DNA of 32,111 nt. It comes from Atractiella rhizophila. Its lineage: Eukaryota. Below the pieces are notes generated by a model. The model was not told where the DNA came from, made no database searches, and saw only the letters and a program-made list of their open reading frames with translations. The position numbers and the translations under genes were made by a program. How positions within the stretch are numbered: position 1 is the first letter of the stretch; the number at the start of each line of letters is the position of its first letter. Shown one piece after another: positions 1,659 to 16,400 of this stretch. The stretch lies in NCBI GenBank assembly GCA_021432655.1, contig MU271688.1, positions 1-32,111 of the forward strand, read 5' to 3'.

Positions 1659-2744
1659 AAACGTTAGTACGAGTGCTCGTTACAGGTGTGAAAGATTAGG
1701 TACAAGGTCATCTCTATTTTCCAGGGAAATAGTCACTATTACTGTGCCTCAAAAATCCAGGCAAAGTGCACGCACTAAGTGATCGCACAATCTCCATCCT
1801 CATTTGCCATTTGCGTCATCAAAAACAAGTGCTCTTTCAATTTATGCAGCGCTCCCTGCTGCAGTGTCTCTCCAAAGCTTATTCAAATGCAATATTGCTG
1901 TTGTGAGCCAAATCTTAAAGGTCTCGAAAATGGTCACTGAAAATATGAATAATCACGGGCATCACTCCCGCCTCATTAGTTATACCAGACGGTTGGGATA
2001 TTCAATAGCTTTATTCCAGGATGTGCAGTCAGGACGTTGTATCAGTGGACACGGATCGAAGAGATGCGACAGCAACGCTCATCCTGAGCATGAAAAACTT
2101 TCATGGGAAAGCTTGAGGAAACTCACTCGTTGCCGTTGTCAAAAGGGTCTTCTACCAATAAATCAATTCAATCGCTCAAAGTGCTCTCTCTGCTGCCAAA
2201 TGTAACCAGGATTCTGAAGGAACTATGAGGCTTTGAACATTGATGATCTTTGCTGCAAATATCCATCTATCCATCCGAAACAGGCAACTCAATGGCGCAC
2301 GGCTTGCCTTCAAGTTATATACTCTCCACCGTTATAACAATGCTCCAGTTGCCATTTGATATTCAGGAAGGCAGGGATTTACAATGCCTAGAGCAAAGCC
2401 AATGTATAAGTGAGCTCATCGCGTTTCTCGACCAGGACTATCACGCGACTTGAAAAGCTTGCAGCTGAGTGAGGTGGTATTGACGGCCTCGTTCTCCTTA
2501 CTACGAATATTCCCAGACGTTCCATGGAGTAGAGAGAAATAGTAATTTCTCTGCATTGGAAAACAAATTAGGATGCATGCATAGCTGTTAGACAGTATGG
2601 GTACATGACAACAGATCTTGAATAAATGAAGCGACTTAAGTCTTTGATTGAGAGTGAATTTGTAAGTTCGTTGAGCTTGAGCTTCAGTGAAACTGGAATA
2701 TAACCTCTGCAACCCAACATTTGGTATTACTGGAAAGAATAAAT

Positions 2745-3221
2745 TTATCTGTTCAAAGCTTGATTTTGTGGAGCTGGGTTTGCCAAAGCGACTCCTATAA
2801 CCCTTCCGTCTACAATTTATCAGTATTACCTTCTTTCAGGGTTAACTAGGTCTTACTCTGTCCCCGCTCCTCTTAGATAAAAATGGAGTGGAGCAATGGG
2901 AAGCTTACCAGTCTAAATCCATTCATTCCCGCAACAGCGGCCTGAGCATGATCAGGTTCCCTGTACCTAGATCATCATCCGTCAGGAATACCCCTATTAT
3001 GTAACAGTAAAGACTAACGTAGCGAAGGCAAACCCACGAGACTTTCCCGTCTCTTTGTCCATCATAACCACTAAATCGCGCAGAGGGCCAAATTGAATGA
3101 ATTTTTCCCGCAGAAGTTCTTGTGTCGTTTCGTAAGAAATATTGCCGATCCAGACTTTGGTTTGTGCCCTAAGAACAACAGTCATTCGTCCCGCTACCCT
3201 CCATAAAAGATGCACCGACAT
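2745..3221 (-). CDS. Small single-RRM RNA-binding protein (91 aa model)
   Basis: RNP2 VWIGNI and RNP1 RGFAFATY. Proposed exons 3221-3220, 3168-3019, 2966-2909, 2857 and 2809-2745 total 276 nt and give MAQTKVWIGNISYETTQELLREKFIQFGPLRDLVVMMDKETGKSRGFAFATYREPDHAQAAVAGMNGFRLNGRVIGVALANPAPQNQALNR*. Confidence 0.85.
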
Positions 3222-3971
3222 TTTGTTCCCGAAGTCAATGCACAGATTTTCTTTTAGATGGTACGTATGCTATGAGAATAGGGAGAGAAGGAGTGTAATG
3301 AGGAGGCCAACGAGCAATATAAGAGCGCTGGAAGATGGCGTTGGGTCTTTATTATTTAGCCCTCGAATCCTAGAATACGCCACGAGTACCACAATCTTCC
3401 AGTAGCACTATAGTGGTTGATGATTCCATGCCCAAAGACAGGACGTGCGGAGTGACCACTCTTTTGAGGAACTAAGTTCGAGGCTTTCTTTGAGACTGGT
3501 CACGACCTTCCATTTTGACCTTGAAAGACGAAGATCACTTCGACAACCCCTATCCACGCTGACCTACAGTCTTGGAATTCTCAGATGGAGAAGCATCGGA
3601 AGACGTGCCCCTGGTCGGAGATGGCGCCTCCAGATCATCTTTCCAGGACAAACTTTAAGAACAAAGGGATCTCGAAATTTGCGGTTGTTGAAACCGTTCT
3701 GTACATGCGCTTGATGGAGAACTCTCGTGACAATCTCATGGGTCTCCATCTCATGTGTGCATTGTTGTTCTTTTGTTCCTGATTGGGATTGAGACTCCCT
3801 CTTCTTTGGGTCCAATTTACCCAGAAAGTTTACTGCACCAAACATTCGCGCCACAATTTCTCACAGCTGAACTTTTACGTTTCAGCCTGAAATCCTACAG
3901 CTCTTTTCGTTTAGATCCAAGGGGATTCTGCACATGTGAATGGTTTCCTTTCAGCTCTCCTTCTTCAACTT

Positions 3972-4147
3972 NNNNNNNNNNNNNNNNNNNNNNNNNNNNN
4001 NNNNNNNNNNNNNNNNNNNNNNNNNNNNNNNNNNNNNNNNNNNNNNNNNNNNNNNNNNNNNNNNNNNNNNNNNNNNNNNNNNNNNNNNNNNNNNNNNNNN
4101 NNNNNNNNNNNNNNNNNNNNNNNNNNNNNNNNNNNNNNNNNNNNNNN
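3972..4147. other. Assembly gap (176 N)
   Basis: Run of N characters. Confidence 1.
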
Positions 4148-5552: not shown

Positions 5553-8326
5553 CTAAAAAGTGAAGGTTTGACTCCGTGGAAAACGTCCTTGGGTTGCGTG
5601 TTGCCTCCAGCCTTGAGTAAAGTGGATGTGTGCCTTTGCTTTCCTCTCCCATCGGCGTCCCAAACTAGGACCCTCCAGGCGAGCGGCTCCTCCTGCTTTC
5701 TTTCCAAGGTGGTGCCAGATAATGGCGTTGTTGTCCGTCATTGCGCAGATTGCAGCCTCAAAGAGGCGCCAATAGTGTGATAGAGGTATTTCTTTTGTGG
5801 TGTTGGAGAGTGTCGCCAGAAGGGAGAGCGAGGACTTCGCCTTCTTCTCGATCGCTTTTAAATGAGAATTGAAAGTTAACCTGGAATCGAGGAGCATTCC
5901 CAGGTATTTCATCTCAAGCGACTGCTTTATGGTTGTGGATCCTACACGAATTGTGAGCGTGCCAAATCAGGACTTCATCCCCTTCAGTTTCCCGTAGAGG
6001 ACGAAGTCCGTCTTGGCTTCCTCGAAAATGGCACCATGTTTCTCACCCCAGGCCATTGCTTTGTCGAGCATCACCTCGAGGTTAGCAATGGCCATCGGAG
6101 GGTTCGTTGCACGGGCATTCATGTGGATGTCGTCTACGAACCCGCATTTCAGAGATTCCCCTTCCGGCGCCTGTATTTCAAGGAGATCAGCATTGTAAAA
6201 CAGGTAGAGAATAGGAGAGAGGGGGATCCTTGTGCCAGTCCTATGGCAAGGGCGAATGGCTTTGAGGTGTAGCCGTCGAAGTTGTAGGTTGTCTCCCTAT
6301 CCATAAGCCACGATTGGATGATTTCAATCTTGCTTTCTGGGACTGCTCTTTTCCTTAGGTCGTCGATTAGTTGAGGGTGGACCACTGTGGGAAAGGCGCC
6401 TTTGACGTCCAAGGAGACTGAAGCCGTTACCTCTCCCTTCCTCCAGCCTTCTCGAATGAACTCTGTCACAGTTAGTAAGGCGTCGTTGGTGGATCGACCT
6501 GGCCTGGCACCGAAGTGATGGGAGGGGAGGGCACCATATCTCTCTGCGTGGAAGGTGAGTCTGGCTGAGATAATGCCGTCGAAAACTTTTGCCACACAGT
6601 CCAGGAGAGCGATGGGCCGGTAGGCTGAAGGTAGGGAGTAATCCGGTCGTTTGGGCTTTCTGAGAATGACCGTCGTGAAGCTTTTCCAAGACTTTGGGTA
6701 ATATTCAACAAGGTAGCAAGCTGAAAAGATGGTGAAGAGGGGTTGGCGAATCTCCGACCTAACCTCTTTTAATACCTTGTTGGAAATGCCAGTCAGCCCA
6801 GGAGCAGAGCTTGTTTTGATCCTATCTATTGCTTCATCAATTTCTTCAATCTTTAGCGGAACGGAGGGGGCAGAGGAAGGGGATGGGGATGGAATGTCAG
6901 AGAGGTCGCAGCATCGAGTGGAGGGGTTAAATGAGGAATGCAAAAGAGATGCTATTTCAGCTGGGGAGGAAACAGTGTCATCGGGACTGTTTGGGTCAGT
7001 GAGGGGAGGGATGTCACGACACTGTTCCTCCCTCTTTCCGTACTTATGCGCCGTCCATATTGAGTTTTTGTCCAGGTCAGCGAGGAAATCTTCGAAGTGT
7101 TGGGACTTTGCCTGCCTGATATCAGCGTGGAACTGGTTAGCCGCTCCTCGCCATCGCAGGCGGGTTTCCTCCATAGTTTCCTTACTGCCCCTTTTCTTAG
7201 CTTTGAGAAACCTGTTACGAAGTTTGTTGACCATCTTTCGCTTCTCTGACAGTTGATCCGTCCACCATCACTTTGTTGATTGTCCTTTAGATGCTACAGG
7301 TATCAGCTTCGTACCTTCAATCAACGCCGCTGTGAGGAGTTCAACTGCATCGTCTATCTTTTCTCACGTCGAAAGCCTGTCCACATCCCCTGGGATCCCT
7401 GCAAGTAGGTCAGACTTTTGTAGGTGTTCCCTTACCAGCTCCCAATTAGCTGACTGGGTGTTATATTGGACGTGGATCGAAGGCTGTCGGGAGTAGCGAA
7501 AGTTTGGTCACTAACTTGTAATGGTCCAGTTGTGACTGTCTTCCCCTTGGTCAGTAACACAATATGTTATATATTCGTCAGCTGTTTCGTTAGTGAAAAT
7601 GAGATCGATAGTAGTCTCGTAGCCTAAAGCGCTGATGTACGTTGGAACTCTGCTTTGTGAGCGTAAGGTGAGACCTATTTCCTCAAAACTTTCGAGGAGA
7701 TATTCTGCGTTGCCATCCATGCGGGTGTACCCTTCAGGGTTCCACTTGCAGTGATGCAGATTGAAGTCCCCCCCTACATATACCAGGTCTTCTTCACCCA
7801 GCAACCCTCTCTCTTTTGAATCAGCAAGGAGTATCATGATGTTGTCGATAGATTGTGTTCCTCCTGCTGCATTGTATACGTTGACGATAAAGAGATGCTC
7901 CCCTCCGCTCAGTGAAATCATGATTGCGGAAATGTCTGGAAATTTGGTTGGGATCTCAGTGAAGGAGTCTCCTTCGAAGGTTTTTAGATTAACCAGGATG
8001 ATTGAGCGTGAGACTTCTGACCTCGAGTCAGATGTTTTGATCTTTTTTGATAGCACTGCTATGTATCCTGGGAAGCGTATAAGGGTTCCACTGTCAGGAA
8101 GGACTGTGGGTGGTTCTTGAATAAGGATGATGTCCGCTAATCTGTCATTCGAGTTCATAAAAGAATGTGTAATGGTACCCCTTTTATCGTGGTTTTGTTG
8201 TATGATGGTAATGTATTTTTCCCAGCGAAGTGAAATGGGCGTAATAGGAGGAGCAGGTGGGTTATTTCCACTGTCTGAAGATGTGTCGCTTTCGTCATCA
8301 GACCATCTAAATATTTCATCTATCAT
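5553..8326 (-). pseudogene. LINE ORF2 (APE endonuclease + reverse transcriptase), with frameshifts and stops
   Basis: APE motifs ILIQEP, NVYN, GGDFNLHH and TIDLIF. RT motifs SSAPGLTGI, YRPIALLDCVAK, HFGARPGRST, SLDVKGAF, GLAQGSP, GFVDD (~6128-6142) and KYLGMLLDSRLTF. In-frame TGA at 7268-7270 (K*WW); frameshift at the C5 run ~6221-6225. Confidence 0.9.
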
Positions 8327-10362: not shown

Positions 10363-13300
10363 TTTCATGTAATGGACACCTGGGCAAAAAGAGAATGGCA
10401 CAACTCTTGGTGGTTAAACGATTTTGATGGCTTTGCTGAGTGTAAACAAGGCGGCGAAAAAAAGCAGTGAGTAATATCGACGTCGCAGGGATTTACTAAT
10501 GTTTAGCAAGGGGAACATGAATTTTCCGTCTCGGAGTGCACTGCAGGCTGTCCGGGAGATCACATGTACAACACAGGCAACAACAGGTTGGTGAGATGAT
10601 ACGATCATAGGCGATATCAAAATGAGGGCAAAGATACAGTCATAGACAATGTTAACCTCACCAACGACGACAACATCATGGGTGATGACAGCGTGGTAGA
10701 GGGAAGCGGCGAATCATCTCGTGTGAAGTCTCCCCCACCACCTCCACAATTTGTCAGACCTTTACACCAATTTGACGACATCAAATCCACTCCGAGCTTC
10801 CAAACGTTCTCACGTTGCAGCCCTGCAGGTTCTCCTGCATTGCGTCGGCACCACATAGAGTGTCGTTGCTTCTTTGCTTGAATCGATGTTCTCTTGGTTG
10901 CGTCTTGTTGTGGTGGTAGATGGACGCTGGCCAGGGTTAGGATGAGTTGGTTGGCATTAAGAGTGGTCGAAAAGAGAGCAGAGCTGTCGCGCTTTGTAAG
11001 GTCTGTCGAATCAGCAAGGCAGAGAAACAAATTATGGAGCCCCTCAACACAGCGTAACTGTCAGATCCACCTGCTACAACAACTGGTGAGAAGGAAAAAT
11101 TGACCCCTGGGAGTTTGCCGATTCAGTCCCCACAAAGTCGCACGCTTGCCTAAACCTTACTTTTTGCTCCTGTCCAGGAAATGTGAGTAACTCTCTGCAG
11201 GGTATCAAGTGTTGACTTGTTGCCAAAAGGGTGATCGGAAGACCAGGCGTCGACTTTCCAGTCATCTGTCCCTGGAAAGATCCTCCACCTTTTGTAAGGT
11301 GGAGCTCAGAGGAACCTCGGTCCAGTCTTGGATGGCTACTCGAAGGAGAATTATACCGATCCATGAGCATGGAGTTCTTGAACAGGCCAGATGGAAATGC
11401 TGACAAAGCTGCCTCATCTTTGTGCTAAAAAGTGGGAGAGTGAGAACATGTTCGTCAATCCCTGAACCGCCCTTCGATATCTTACTACATTTAATGTGTT
11501 AAAGGGAAGGTCCACTTGCTGGATTTGACTTCTTGAAAGATGGGGATTTTATTACTGTGCTCACATTTGCAATGAACACATCAAAGACGCTGCTGAACAA
11601 AGCAGTGGATGAAGTGTATGTGCAGAGAGGAAAGAAAGTGTTTGGAATAAAGGAGGATCCTCAATGGTATTGGGTTGGTGGAAGAAGATCCAGGGAGTAG
11701 TCTAGCATTTACAAAAGGCTGCATTGTCTAGCTAAGTAGATGACTGGATAATCAAGATAATCATAGTGTATTACTTTGTTGCCTGTTGGTATTATTGCCC
11801 CTGTATCAATGCTAACCCTTCCATATCCTCACATGCAGCATACTGTCCTCTCCTTCATCATGAGCCTCACACAGAATGTCTTTGAAGTTAATGCCATAAG
11901 TCTTGTTGCAGGAATGTGTCTTTGTGCAACCCAGTGGAGTTGATTTGGTAGCTATAGATCAAATGACCTTTTGGCTCAAAAGTGAGCAGCAAATAGGATA
12001 GTCAGGGGTCAAAGGCTAGATGAATACGACTGGTATGTGCAGTTCTTGTCTCATACTCTTCAAGAGGTATATTGATGACATCTTTGCCCTCACCCTGGAA
12101 TACGGGACCAAGTGGAAGCCTTTGTCAATGAGTGCAACTCTTTGAACCCCACAATACGTCTCACACACAATATGTCCACTGAGTCAGTGGACTTCCTTGA
12201 TCTCACCATCTATAAGGACAAGGAACTGTCCTTGACGACTGGCCACCATGATCTTTCAAAAGAAGGTGAATCAGTACCTCTATCTTCCCTTTCACTCATA
12301 CCATGAGCATAAACAGAAGACTGGGTTCATCAAAGGAGAAGCCATCAGATAAGTTAGGGCATGCTCAAGTGTCAAAGAATTTGACAAGATGATCCCACTC
12401 TCTACAGTATGCCTGGATACCCCCTCAAGATCATAAGGTCACAACTATCTATGGTCATGCACAAAGATCACTGGCTCTATCTCGAAGAGAAGGAGAATAA
12501 GGAAGATATCCTCCCACTCCTCTTCAAAGTGGAGTCGAACCCATACCCAGAAACGGACAGGATTTGCCGCCTCCTGGATGAATTTGCCTCTACTGTCACA
12601 GAACTTCTTGGAATCAACTTCATGCATTCATGCACCAAGCATGAAGAAAGCTCATTTCAGCCTTTAAAAGTGGGGAGGATCATGGGAAAATATACAACTC
12701 GTAGTTTAGATCAAGTTATATTGTGCTGCAACTTTCATCTATAACTAGTATTTCCGAACATAACCGTCTTACAATTACACGGTTACTCAGGTGCAGCCAG
12801 TTATGAAGCTCATCCAGCAATCATAAGGCTCTTTCACCGTAGCAAATATCCATGTCTAACAGACATAAACTTACCTGAGCCGCTAGCATTTATTTTCTCC
12901 CAACTCACGACCTTACCCTCGCTTTGCTTTGGTGGCATGGCATGCATGCAATGTCATTCTGTCATTCTGCACAATTGCCAGAATGTGTGGTAGTTTCACG
13001 TAGAGTTTCACGCATTCGAGGTTCACCAAATATTTCACAGCTTTTCTTCAACAGAAAATGTGAAGAGTCGACGACCTGCTACCGAGACACTTCCTGAGGT
13101 ACTTGATACGGCGTAGAGAGGAGCGAAATCTTTTATTTGGCGCGTACAGAGTAATAGAACCGGTGGTGAGAGGTCAGTCCATGTTTTTTGCAGAAAGAAT
13201 GGGAATGTTCTGTGGGAGAATGAAGATGCAAGAATCTCTTTCTTTAAGCGCCCCCTTAGTCCCGGTTGAGGGCTCGCTCATTTGTTTGTTTCAAGTGAAA

Positions 13301-13496: not shown

Positions 13497-16400
13497 TTTC
13501 ATGTAATGGACACCTGGGCAAAAAGAGAATGGCACAACTCTTGGTTGTTAAACGATTTTGATGGCTTTGCTGAGTGTAAACAAGGTGGCAAAAAAAAGCA
13601 GTGAGTAATATTCGACATCGCAGGGATTTACTAATGTTTAGCAAGGGGAACATGAATTTTCCGTCGGAGTGCACTGCAGGCTGTCCGGGAGATCACATGT
13701 ACAACACAGGCAACGACAGGTTGGTGAGATGATACGATCATAGGCGATATCAAAATGAGGGCAAAGATACAGACATAGACAATGTTAACCTCACCAACGA
13801 CGACAACATCATGGGTGATGACAGCGTGGCAGAGGGAAGCGGCAAATCATCTCGTGTGAAGTCTCCCCCACCACCTCCACAATTTGTCAGACCTTTACAC
13901 CAACATGACGACATCGAATCCACTCCGAGCTTCCAAACGTTCTCACGTTGCAGCCCTGCAGGTTCTCCTGCATTGCGTCGGCACCACATAGAGTGACGTT
14001 GCTTCTTTGCTTGAATCGATGTTCTCTTGGTTGCGTCTTGTTGTGGTGGTAGATGGACGCTGGCCAGGGTTAGGATGAGTTGGTTGGCATTAAGAGTGGT
14101 CGAAAAGAGAGCAGAGCTGTCGTGCTTTGTAAGGTCTGTCGAACCAGCAAGGCAGAGAAACAAATTATGGAGCCCCTCAACACGGCATAACTGTCAGATC
14201 CACCTGCTGCAACAACTGGTGAGAAGGAAAAATTGACCCCTGGGGGTTTGCGGGATTCAGTCCCCACAAAGTCGCAAGCTTGCCTAAACCTTACTTTTTG
14301 CTCCTGTCCAGGAAATGTGAGTAACTCTCTGCAGGGTATCAAGTGTTGACTTGTTGCCAAAAGTGTGATCGGAAGACCAGGTGTCGACTTTCCAGTCATC
14401 TGTCCCTGGAAAGACCCTCCACCCTTTGTAAGGTGGAGCTCAGAGGAACCTCGGTCCAGTCTTGGATGGCTACTCGAAGGAGAATTATACCGATCCATGA
14501 GCATGGAGTTCTTGAACAGGCCAGATGGAAATGCTGACAAGCTGCCTCATCTTTGTGCTAAAAAGTGGGAGAGTGAGAACATGTTCGTCAATCCCTGAAC
14601 CGCCCTTCGATATCTTACTACATTTAATGTGTTAAAGGGAAGGTCCACTTGCTGGATTTGACTTCTTGAAAGATGGGGATTTTATTACTGTGCTCACATT
14701 TGCAATGAACACATCAAAGACGCTGCTGAACAAAGCAGTGGATGAAGTGTATGTGCAGAGAGGAAAGAAAGTGTTTGGAATAAAGGAGGATCCTCAATGG
14801 TATTGGGTTGGTGGAAGAAGATCCAGGGAGTAGTCTAGCATTTACAAAAGGCTGCATTGTCTAGCTAAGTAGATGACTGGATAATCAAGATAATCATAGT
14901 GTATTACTTTGTTGCCTGTTGGTATTATTGCCCCTGTATCAATGCTAACCCTTCCATATCCTCACGTGCAGCCTACTGTCCTCTCCCTCATCATGAGCCT
15001 CACACAGAATGTCTTTGAAGTTAATGCCATAAGTCTTGTTGCAGGAATGTGTCTTTGTGCATCCCAGTGGAGTTGATTTGGTAGCTATAGATCAAATGAC
15101 CTTTTGGCTCAAAAGTGAGAAACAAAGAGGACAGTCAGGGGTCAAAGGCTAGATGAATATGACTGGTATGTGCTGTTCTTGTCTCATACTCTTCAAGAGA
15201 TATATTGATGACATCTTTGCCCTCACCCTGGAATATAGGACCAAGTGGAAGCCTTTGTCAATGAGTGCAACTCTTTGAACCCCACAATACGTCTCATACA
15301 CAATATGTCCACTGAGTCTGTGGACTTCCTTGATCTCACCATCTATAAGGACAAGGAACTGTCCTTGACGACTGGCCACCAAGATCTTTCAAAAGAAGGT
15401 GAATCAGTACCTCTATCTTCCCTTTCACTCATACCATGAGCATAAACAGAAGACTGGGTTCATCAAAGGAGAAGCCATCAGATAAGTTAGGGCATGCTCA
15501 AGTGTCAAAGAATTTGACAAGATGATCCCACTCTCTACGGTATGCCTGGATACCCCCTCAAGATCATAAGGTCACAACTATCTATGGTCATGCACAAAGA
15601 TCACTGGCGCTATCTCGAAGAGAAGGAGAATAAGAAAGATCTTCAAAGTGGAGTCGAACCCATACCCAGAAACGGACGGGATTTGCCGCCTCCTGGATGA
15701 ATTTGCCTCTACTGTCACAGAACTTCTTGGAATCAACTTCATGCATTCATGCACCAAGCGTGAAGAAAGCTCATTTCAGCCTTCAAAAGTGGGGAGGATC
15801 AAGGGAAAATAAACAACTCGTAGTTTAGATCAAGTTATGTTGTGCTGCAACTTTCATCTATAACTAGTATTTCCGAACATAACCGTCTTCCCGTACACTG
15901 ACACGGTTACTCAGGTGCAGCCAGTTATGAAGCTCATCCAGCAATCATAAGGCTCTTTCACCGTAACAAATATCCATGTCTAACAGACGTAAACTTACCT
16001 GAGCCGCTAGCATTTATTTTCTTCCACCTCACGTCCTTACCCTCGCATTACTTTGGTGGCATGGCATGCATGCAATGTCATTCTGTCATTCTGCACAATT
16101 GCCAGAATGTGTGGTGTTTGGGAAACTTTCATGATAGTTTCACGTAGAGTTTCACGCATTCGAGGTTCACCAAATATTTCACAGCTTTTCTTCAACAGAA
16201 AATGTGAGGAGTCGACGACCTGCTACCGAGACACTTCCTGAGGTACTTGATACGGCGTAGAGAGGAGCGAAATCTTTTATTTGGCGCGTACAGAGTAATA
16301 GAACCGGTGGTGAGAGGTCAGTCCATGTTTTTTGCAGAAAGAATGGGAATGTTCTGTGGGAGAATGAAGATGCAAGAATCTCTTTCTTTAAGCGCCCCCT

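Follow-up and report, generated by a model that had tools for sequence, protein, structure and literature searches.

One-nucleotide exons in plants and fungi

Exons of a single nucleotide that have been verified by RNA are described for Arabidopsis APC11 (PMC4674806), for plant VPS55 (PMC8831610), for the cytochrome P450 gene CYP621A of Fusarium (PMC12940212) and for the basidiomycete Coprinopsis cinerea (PMC12230235). The kind is already known, in basidiomycetes too, and the exon reported here, the A at position 2857 of a scaffold of Atractiella rhizophila, is a further case and not new biology. An earlier note on this DNA had called one-nucleotide exons very rare; rare they are, but "very rare" is an overstatement in view of the 13 recorded in Coprinopsis cinerea (PMC12230235).

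In plants, APC11 and VPS55 are reported to carry clusters of one-nucleotide microexons that are missing from reference annotations (PMC8831610). The Atractiella exon resembles those of Arabidopsis APC11 (Guo & Liu 2015) and VPS55 in being a single base between two spliceosomal introns, essential for the frame and misannotated (PMC4674806, PMC8831610). The APC11 exon is constitutive, and its authors propose a sequential removal of the two introns (PMC4674806); for VPS55, natural forms without the exon are reported (PMC8831610). The introns in these plant cases are longer than those of the present gene, and function was tested in plants with GFP fusions and base substitutions (PMC4674806, PMC8831610).

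In fungi, the long-read annotation of Coprinopsis cinerea (2025) lists 13 exons of 1 nt in 13 genes, 57 exons of 2 nt and 27 exons of 3 nt (PMC12230235). Coprinopsis is, like Atractiella, a basidiomycete with short introns, in which ultra-short internal exons break gene models if they are omitted; it differs in being an agaricomycete and in that its data are a genome-wide tally, with no individual case described in the passages cited (PMC12230235). The one-base exon of Fusarium CYP621A was confirmed by SRA reads (PMC12940212), and Nelson & Syed (2026) count it as the second case overall and the first for fungal genes (PMC12940212), a claim preceded by the Coprinopsis annotation of 2025 with its 13 one-nucleotide exons. 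As an origin they propose a cryptic site of the AG-N-GT type that rescues a lost base (PMC12940212). Like the Atractiella locus, CYP621A is a nuclear fungal gene in which AG and GT enclose one base, within a region about twice as long as a usual intron; in both, that base keeps the frame in a conserved motif, was missed by the annotation and is confirmed by public RNA data (PMC12940212). The CYP621A exon, however, belongs to an ascomycete P450, where it supplies the G (AGGGT) in the middle of a Gly codon and is conserved in at least 20 species (PMC12940212), whereas the exon described below supplies the A that opens an Asn codon in an RRM gene of a basidiomycete.

Two other arrangements of abutting splice sites are related to this one. 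Fungal stwintrons (Fekete et al. 2017) likewise consist of two abutting short introns that are removed consecutively, but there a splice signal of the external intron is interrupted by the internal one, and the mRNA retains no base (PMC5587772). The Atractiella locus is not a stwintron, as the signals of both introns are already complete before splicing and the mRNA retains one base. At the ratchet points of recursive splicing (AG/GT, a zero-nucleotide exon) a 3' splice site also adjoins a 5' splice site and removal is stepwise; there nothing is left behind and the introns are very long, in contrast to the one base kept and the introns of about 50 nt in Atractiella (cited in PMC4674806). Titles and abstract openings of the literature yielded no report of a one-base exon for Atractiella or the Pucciniomycotina.

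Organization of the RRM gene and its public models

Atractiella rhizophila is a root fungus, a basidiomycete of the Pucciniomycotina, and the window, that is, the whole stretch of DNA analysed, is a scaffold of 32111 nt. A gene for a small protein with a single RRM lies on its minus strand. With A 2857 included, the coding sequence (CDS) has 276 nt (91 codons and a stop) in five exon pieces (Table 1).

Table 1. Features of the single-RRM gene of Atractiella rhizophila, listed in the direction of transcription; positions are those of the window
Feature	Position	Strand	Description
First exon	3220..3418	minus	5' UTR and AT (3221-3220) of the start codon; 5' end approximate
Intron splitting the start codon between AT and G	3169..3219	minus	51 nt, GT..AG; joint 3167->3219, "cut +1", in X3, X7 and X12
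Coding exon	3019..3168	minus	150 nt: G of ATG, AQTKVWIGN...GFAFA, two bases of a Thr codon; covered by RNA contigs
Intron	2967..3018	minus	52 nt, GT..AG; joint 2964->3017, "cut +2", in X3 and X12
Coding exon	2909..2966	minus	58 nt, ...YREPDHAQAAVAGMNGFRL; last codon is a complete CTG (...GGA TTT AGA CTG)
Upstream flanking intron	2858..2908	minus	51 nt, GTAAGC...CTAAG...ACAG; present in the X1 DNA contig, missing from all RNA contigs
One-nucleotide exon	2857..2857	minus	A, first base of the AAC codon (Asn71); in all three bridging RNA contigs
Downstream flanking intron	2810..2856	minus	47 nt, GTAAGA...TACTGAT...TGTAG; present in the X1 DNA contig, missing from RNA contigs
Last exon	2575..2809	minus	AC, GRVIGVALANPAPQNQALNR and TAA; CDS ends at 2745 (coding part 2809-2745, 65 nt), then 3' UTR

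The first exon contributes only two coding bases because the start codon is split (3221-3168, minus strand), and the MAQTK start of the public model corresponds to the same reading. By eye, no ATG is present on the minus strand between 3418 and 3222. Cover of this exon by RNA contigs is unbroken from 3219/3220 to 3354 (run X12), to 3418 (X3) and beyond 3500 (X7), while the 3' UTR ends at about 2575-2587, the contigs stopping at 2587 in X12 and at 2575 in X3. The 150-nt coding exon carries RNP2, RNP1 and most of the RRM (RRM_1 match, E 8e-12).

Several other features of the scaffold were recorded. About 750 nt upstream of the gene there is an assembly gap of 176 N (3972-4147). On the minus strand, a 372-aa open frame at 6149-7267 has a match to the reverse transcriptase domain RVT_1 (E 7e-14) and is adjoined by more open frames (5553-6296); this region is probably a retrotransposon remnant. 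Two nearly identical stretches about 3.1 kb apart, at about 12760-13070 and 15890-16190 on the minus strand, came to light through AGGGTAAG sites; they resemble a repeat, dispersed or tandem. On the plus strand, 28-291 matches the final part of the GNAT acetyltransferase domain Acetyltransf_1 (E 1.8e-05); the frame is already open just inside the scaffold start, and the gene is probably truncated by the scaffold end.

The 99-nt region between the last two long exons (2908-2810) reads on the minus strand GTAAGC...ATCTAAG...GGGGACAG-A-GTAAGA...TACTGAT...TTGTAG, followed by AC GGA AGG GTT ATA GGA GTC. A script that searched these 99 nt for a single base between AG and G[TC] returned A 2857 only, in the context ACAG-A-GTAAGA at 2859-2851. 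The introns on either side would each be workable alone, with 51 and 47 nt as against the 51 and 52 nt of the two other introns of the gene, both confirmed by RNA. Their donors are GTAAGC and GTAAGA, and their candidate branch sites, judged by resemblance to CTRAY, are CTAAG and CTGAT; the candidate branch A would lie 15 nt from the 3' end of the upstream intron and 10 nt from that of the downstream intron. Between candidate branch site and acceptor the upstream intron is purine-rich (GAGGAGCGGGGACAG), which is unusual, and has no classical pyrimidine tract. The word AGNGTAAG occurs five times in the window against 2.49 expected, a number reached by 9 of 100 shuffles and so not significant. 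Its other four sites lie in sequence that is repeated or looks non-coding. The case for the one-base exon is made by the reading frame and the transcripts and not by the motif count.

With A 2857 the peptide across the junction is GFRLNGRVIG (GFRL-N-GRVIG); without it, GFRL is followed by TEGL and a stop at codon 75. No single intron solves the problem, as by eye there is no in-frame AG acceptor before 2809 and no phase-1 GT donor within 2909-2966, and retention of the upstream intron leads the frame into a stop. Position 2908, just after CTG, and position 2810, just before AC, both hold a G, so that a splice site displaced by one would give GAC and not AAC; no single cut, canonical or displaced in this way, can supply the A. 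Every statement of the earlier note about this sequence was checked and holds: its layout (...CTG, GTAAGC...CAG, A, GTAAGA...TAG), the introns of 51 nt (2908-2858) and 47 nt (2856-2810) one base apart, which a script confirms, the 276-nt CDS that completes the RRM in the frame GFRL-N-GRVIG, and the L-T-E-G-L-stop that follows from splicing the region as one intron. The size of the two introns is typical for the gene.

Two NCBI proteins of Atractiella rhizophila match the gene by search with exon 1 and by cluster look-up. KAH8916014.1 (91 aa) lies on the 32111-nt contig and reads ...GFRL-D-GRVIG..., with Asp at residue 71; KAH8923032.1 (70 aa, "partial") lies on an 87688-nt contig, represents a second copy or allele, and ends ...MNGFRL. 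The former is reproduced exactly when G2908 or G2810 is kept as exon, which implies a non-canonical TA..AG or GT..TA intron. It differs from the RNA-supported protein only at residue 71, with D in place of N. The earlier note's expectation that gene predictors would misannotate the gene was borne out, one model having acquired its Asp through a non-canonical intron and the other being cut off at GFRL. In the 91-aa model (P0005), RRM_1 (PF00076) is matched over profile positions 1-69 of 70 (E 1.9e-20, 72.9 bits, gathering cut-off 20.7), whereas in the model cut at GFRL the match covers positions 1-63 only. The last exon in frame completes the RRM, and A 2857 is needed for the reading frame of a conserved part of the protein.

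Word-based protein searches with exon 1 and with the public 91-aa model returned the own-species cluster only and no orthologue. A HMMER search found 38713 proteins at E <= 0.001; multi-RRM proteins dominate the 150 matches listed, among which the own-species cluster (P0004) is the only one above 46% identity. A metagenome scan with the public model gave 277 pattern matches, none of which was confirmed by tblastn.

Transcripts, genomic DNA and alternative readings

Four public runs (of 24 listed) were aligned to positions 2500-3500 of the window, all in the form of assembled contigs: X1, X3, X7 and X12. X12 is a root metatranscriptome; the kind of X3 and X7 is not on record, and these are taken as RNA-derived. 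All three are treated as RNA-derived because all introns are missing from them and splice joints are present. X1 was guessed to be DNA (share 0.91) and may be the sample behind the assembly of the window. Contigs of this type drop rare variants, and proportions, minor isoforms and splicing intermediates are invisible in them.

The joint between 2809 and 2909, which skips 99 positions (CT..AC on the plus strand, equivalent to GT..AG on the coding strand), is spanned by one contig each in X3 (depth 15.1), X7 (100) and X12 (8.28), three runs from three different sources. All three bridging contigs have one letter between 2909 and 2809, a T on the plus strand and hence an A on the coding strand, and read CTG-A-ACGG. 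The extra A anticipated by the earlier note is therefore present in the transcripts, and neither of the two outcomes it had named as telling against the exon was seen: no contig of X3, X7 or X12 uses another acceptor, and the X1 DNA shows no missing G beside the splice sites. RNA contigs do not cover 2840-2907, and the intron bins have a depth of 0 in X3, X7 and X12, a result that carries weight only in combination with the joints. The inclusion form alone was seen in the three runs, at the level of contigs from which rare variants are dropped.

The X7 contigs equal the exons and UTRs of the window without differences, apart from one alignment overhang. The X12 contig has 7 differences from the window in 567 nt, and X3 contains a second allele; the junction is unchanged in both. 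The transcripts may come from the copy in the window or from the second copy on the 87688-nt contig.

Two further contigs were recorded. Contig 10 of X3 represents a rarer transcript variant at 3168-3237 (depth 4.56 versus 11.5) with four other letters, and 12 letters at its 5' exon end are unaligned. Its appearance is that of an allele whose 5' UTR has base changes and whose intron is unchanged. Contig 12 of X7 (200 nt) joins about 2711, in the 3' UTR, back to about 3030 on the minus strand. Its tail of 24 letters repeats the exon-exon junction near its own start, a 6-nt word being common to both places. A template-switch chimera, a loop of the assembly or a circular molecule could each account for it.

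In the DNA, contig 3 of X1 (1648 nt, depth 374) is unbroken over 2554-3500, introns included. Its only departures from the window are C>T at 3005 and an additional base in the G-run of the intron at 2862-2865 (G on the coding strand); at 2908/2909, 2857 and 2809/2810 the two agree. The joined form is found in no X1 DNA contig at any of the four joints, in a search whose filter may omit records. The kept introns, the matching bases at the splice sites and the lack of a joined form argue against a missing G, a retrocopy and a single non-canonical intron alike. At 2553, X1 has two DNA variants with depths of 268 and 191. Given that a second copy exists on the 87688-nt contig, the X1 differences suggest two haplotypes or a duplication of recent date, or else that the assembly slipped in a homopolymer.

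The mature RNA has exactly this extra A, and the DNA has two introns and no joined form. A probability of about 0.93 is given to the reading that the gene for the 91-residue single-RRM protein has a genuine spliceosomal exon of one nucleotide, A 2857 on the minus strand.

The strongest of the other possibilities keeps the one-base exon and adds to it the on/off or autoregulatory switch suggested by the earlier note, in which skipping would give a 74-aa product lacking beta-4 and inclusion would be controlled, perhaps by the RRM protein itself. Skipping does lead to a frameshift and an early stop, and precedents exist in plants, where VPS55 transcripts with and without the one-nucleotide exon are reported to coexist in some lineages (PMC8831610) and where a third of the transcripts skipped an artificial one-nucleotide exon of potato invertase (cited in PMC4674806). 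However, among the contigs of X3, X7 and X12, which include a probable culture sample and the root metatranscriptome, there is no skipped form and no half-spliced intermediate, although this is weak evidence since contigs drop rare variants and cannot prove absence. A switch of this kind is considered unlikely.

It is a good deal less probable that the copy in the window is a broken and silent pseudogene and that the transcripts stem from a different locus, either a processed retrocopy or a paralogue of another structure, with a contiguous CTG-AAC-GGA. The second copy on the 87688-nt contig would provide such a locus, and X1, with its two DNA variants at 2553, suggests two copies or haplotypes. 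Yet the X1 DNA, subject to the same filter, has a joined form at none of the four joints; the "partial" model of the second copy ends at GFRL, as a predictor would on the same layout; the X7 contigs match the exons and UTRs of the window itself, overhang apart; and the four RNA joints coincide with GT..AG introns of the window locus.

An assembly error, by which a G beside a splice site was lost (for example CTGG/GT), would restore one ordinary intron of 99 or 100 nt and a GAC codon for Asp. Asp is common at the equivalent of residue 71 in RRMs, KAH8916014.1 has it there (...GFRL-D-GRV), and a one-base difference in homopolymer length between the window and X1 does occur nearby, in the intron. 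This explanation is nevertheless hardly credible: the junction base is A and not G in three of three bridging contigs, the X1 DNA equals the window at 2908-2909 and 2809-2810, and the model of the second copy breaks off at GFRL as well. Equally close to nil is a single non-canonical intron (TA..AG or GT..TA) combined with a G-to-A polymorphism or editing in the transcripts, which would account for the public 91-aa protein exactly through the keeping of G2908 or G2810 but needs an odd splice site and a base change at the same place in three runs, one of which (X7) is otherwise identical to the window, while the X1 DNA has G at both positions and the canonical AG-A-GT in the middle of the region explains the A with no extra assumption.

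Splicing of the one-base exon and its implications

The one-base exon is flanked by two ordinary short GT..AG introns, each with its own donor, candidate branch site and acceptor. Both are removed, and the lone A is ligated between ...CTG and AC GGA... to give the codon AAC (Asn71) and to keep the frame for strand beta-4 of the RRM (GRVIGV). A few bases at a donor must be held by U1 and the spliceosome during processing. At the donor of the downstream intron these bases would include the acceptor AG of the upstream intron; simultaneous processing would then be impossible, and the two introns are probably removed one after the other. Either order would lead to the same mRNA, the splice signals looking alike before and after the first step. 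For APC11 of Arabidopsis the authors argue likewise, with intron definition and a scheme of the recursive type (PMC4674806).

Inclusion of A 2857 looks constitutive in the material seen. The arrangement could have arisen from two introns gained side by side or from a lost base rescued by a cryptic AG-A-GT. On a more speculative and rather improbable view, the one-base exon acts as a checkpoint: a fixed order of intron removal, with the purine-rich 3' end of the upstream intron and the abutting donor, would make inclusion sensitive to the levels of the spliceosome or of the RRM protein, and the fungus would tune, or the protein itself autoregulate, the choice between a full RRM and the beta-4-less product of 74 aa.

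For the public record, the genuine one-base exon means a correction of KAH8916014.1, which should have Asn and not Asp at residue 71, with two canonical introns around the one-base exon; KAH8923032.1 ends prematurely at this point (GFRL). For the fungi, it is a transcript-backed exon of one base in a third lineage, the Pucciniomycotina, and in a new gene family, that of the RRM. Along with the cases in Coprinopsis and Fusarium, it supports the idea that exons down to a single base are tolerated by fungi with introns of about 50 nt and intron definition. Annotators can search for an "intron" about twice as long as usual that has flanks out of phase and contains an AG-N-GT, and can look for it in models that are marked "partial" or include non-GT/AG introns. 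Atractiella, like Coprinopsis, might hold dozens of exons of 1-3 nt behind models that have been forced into non-canonical introns or left "partial".
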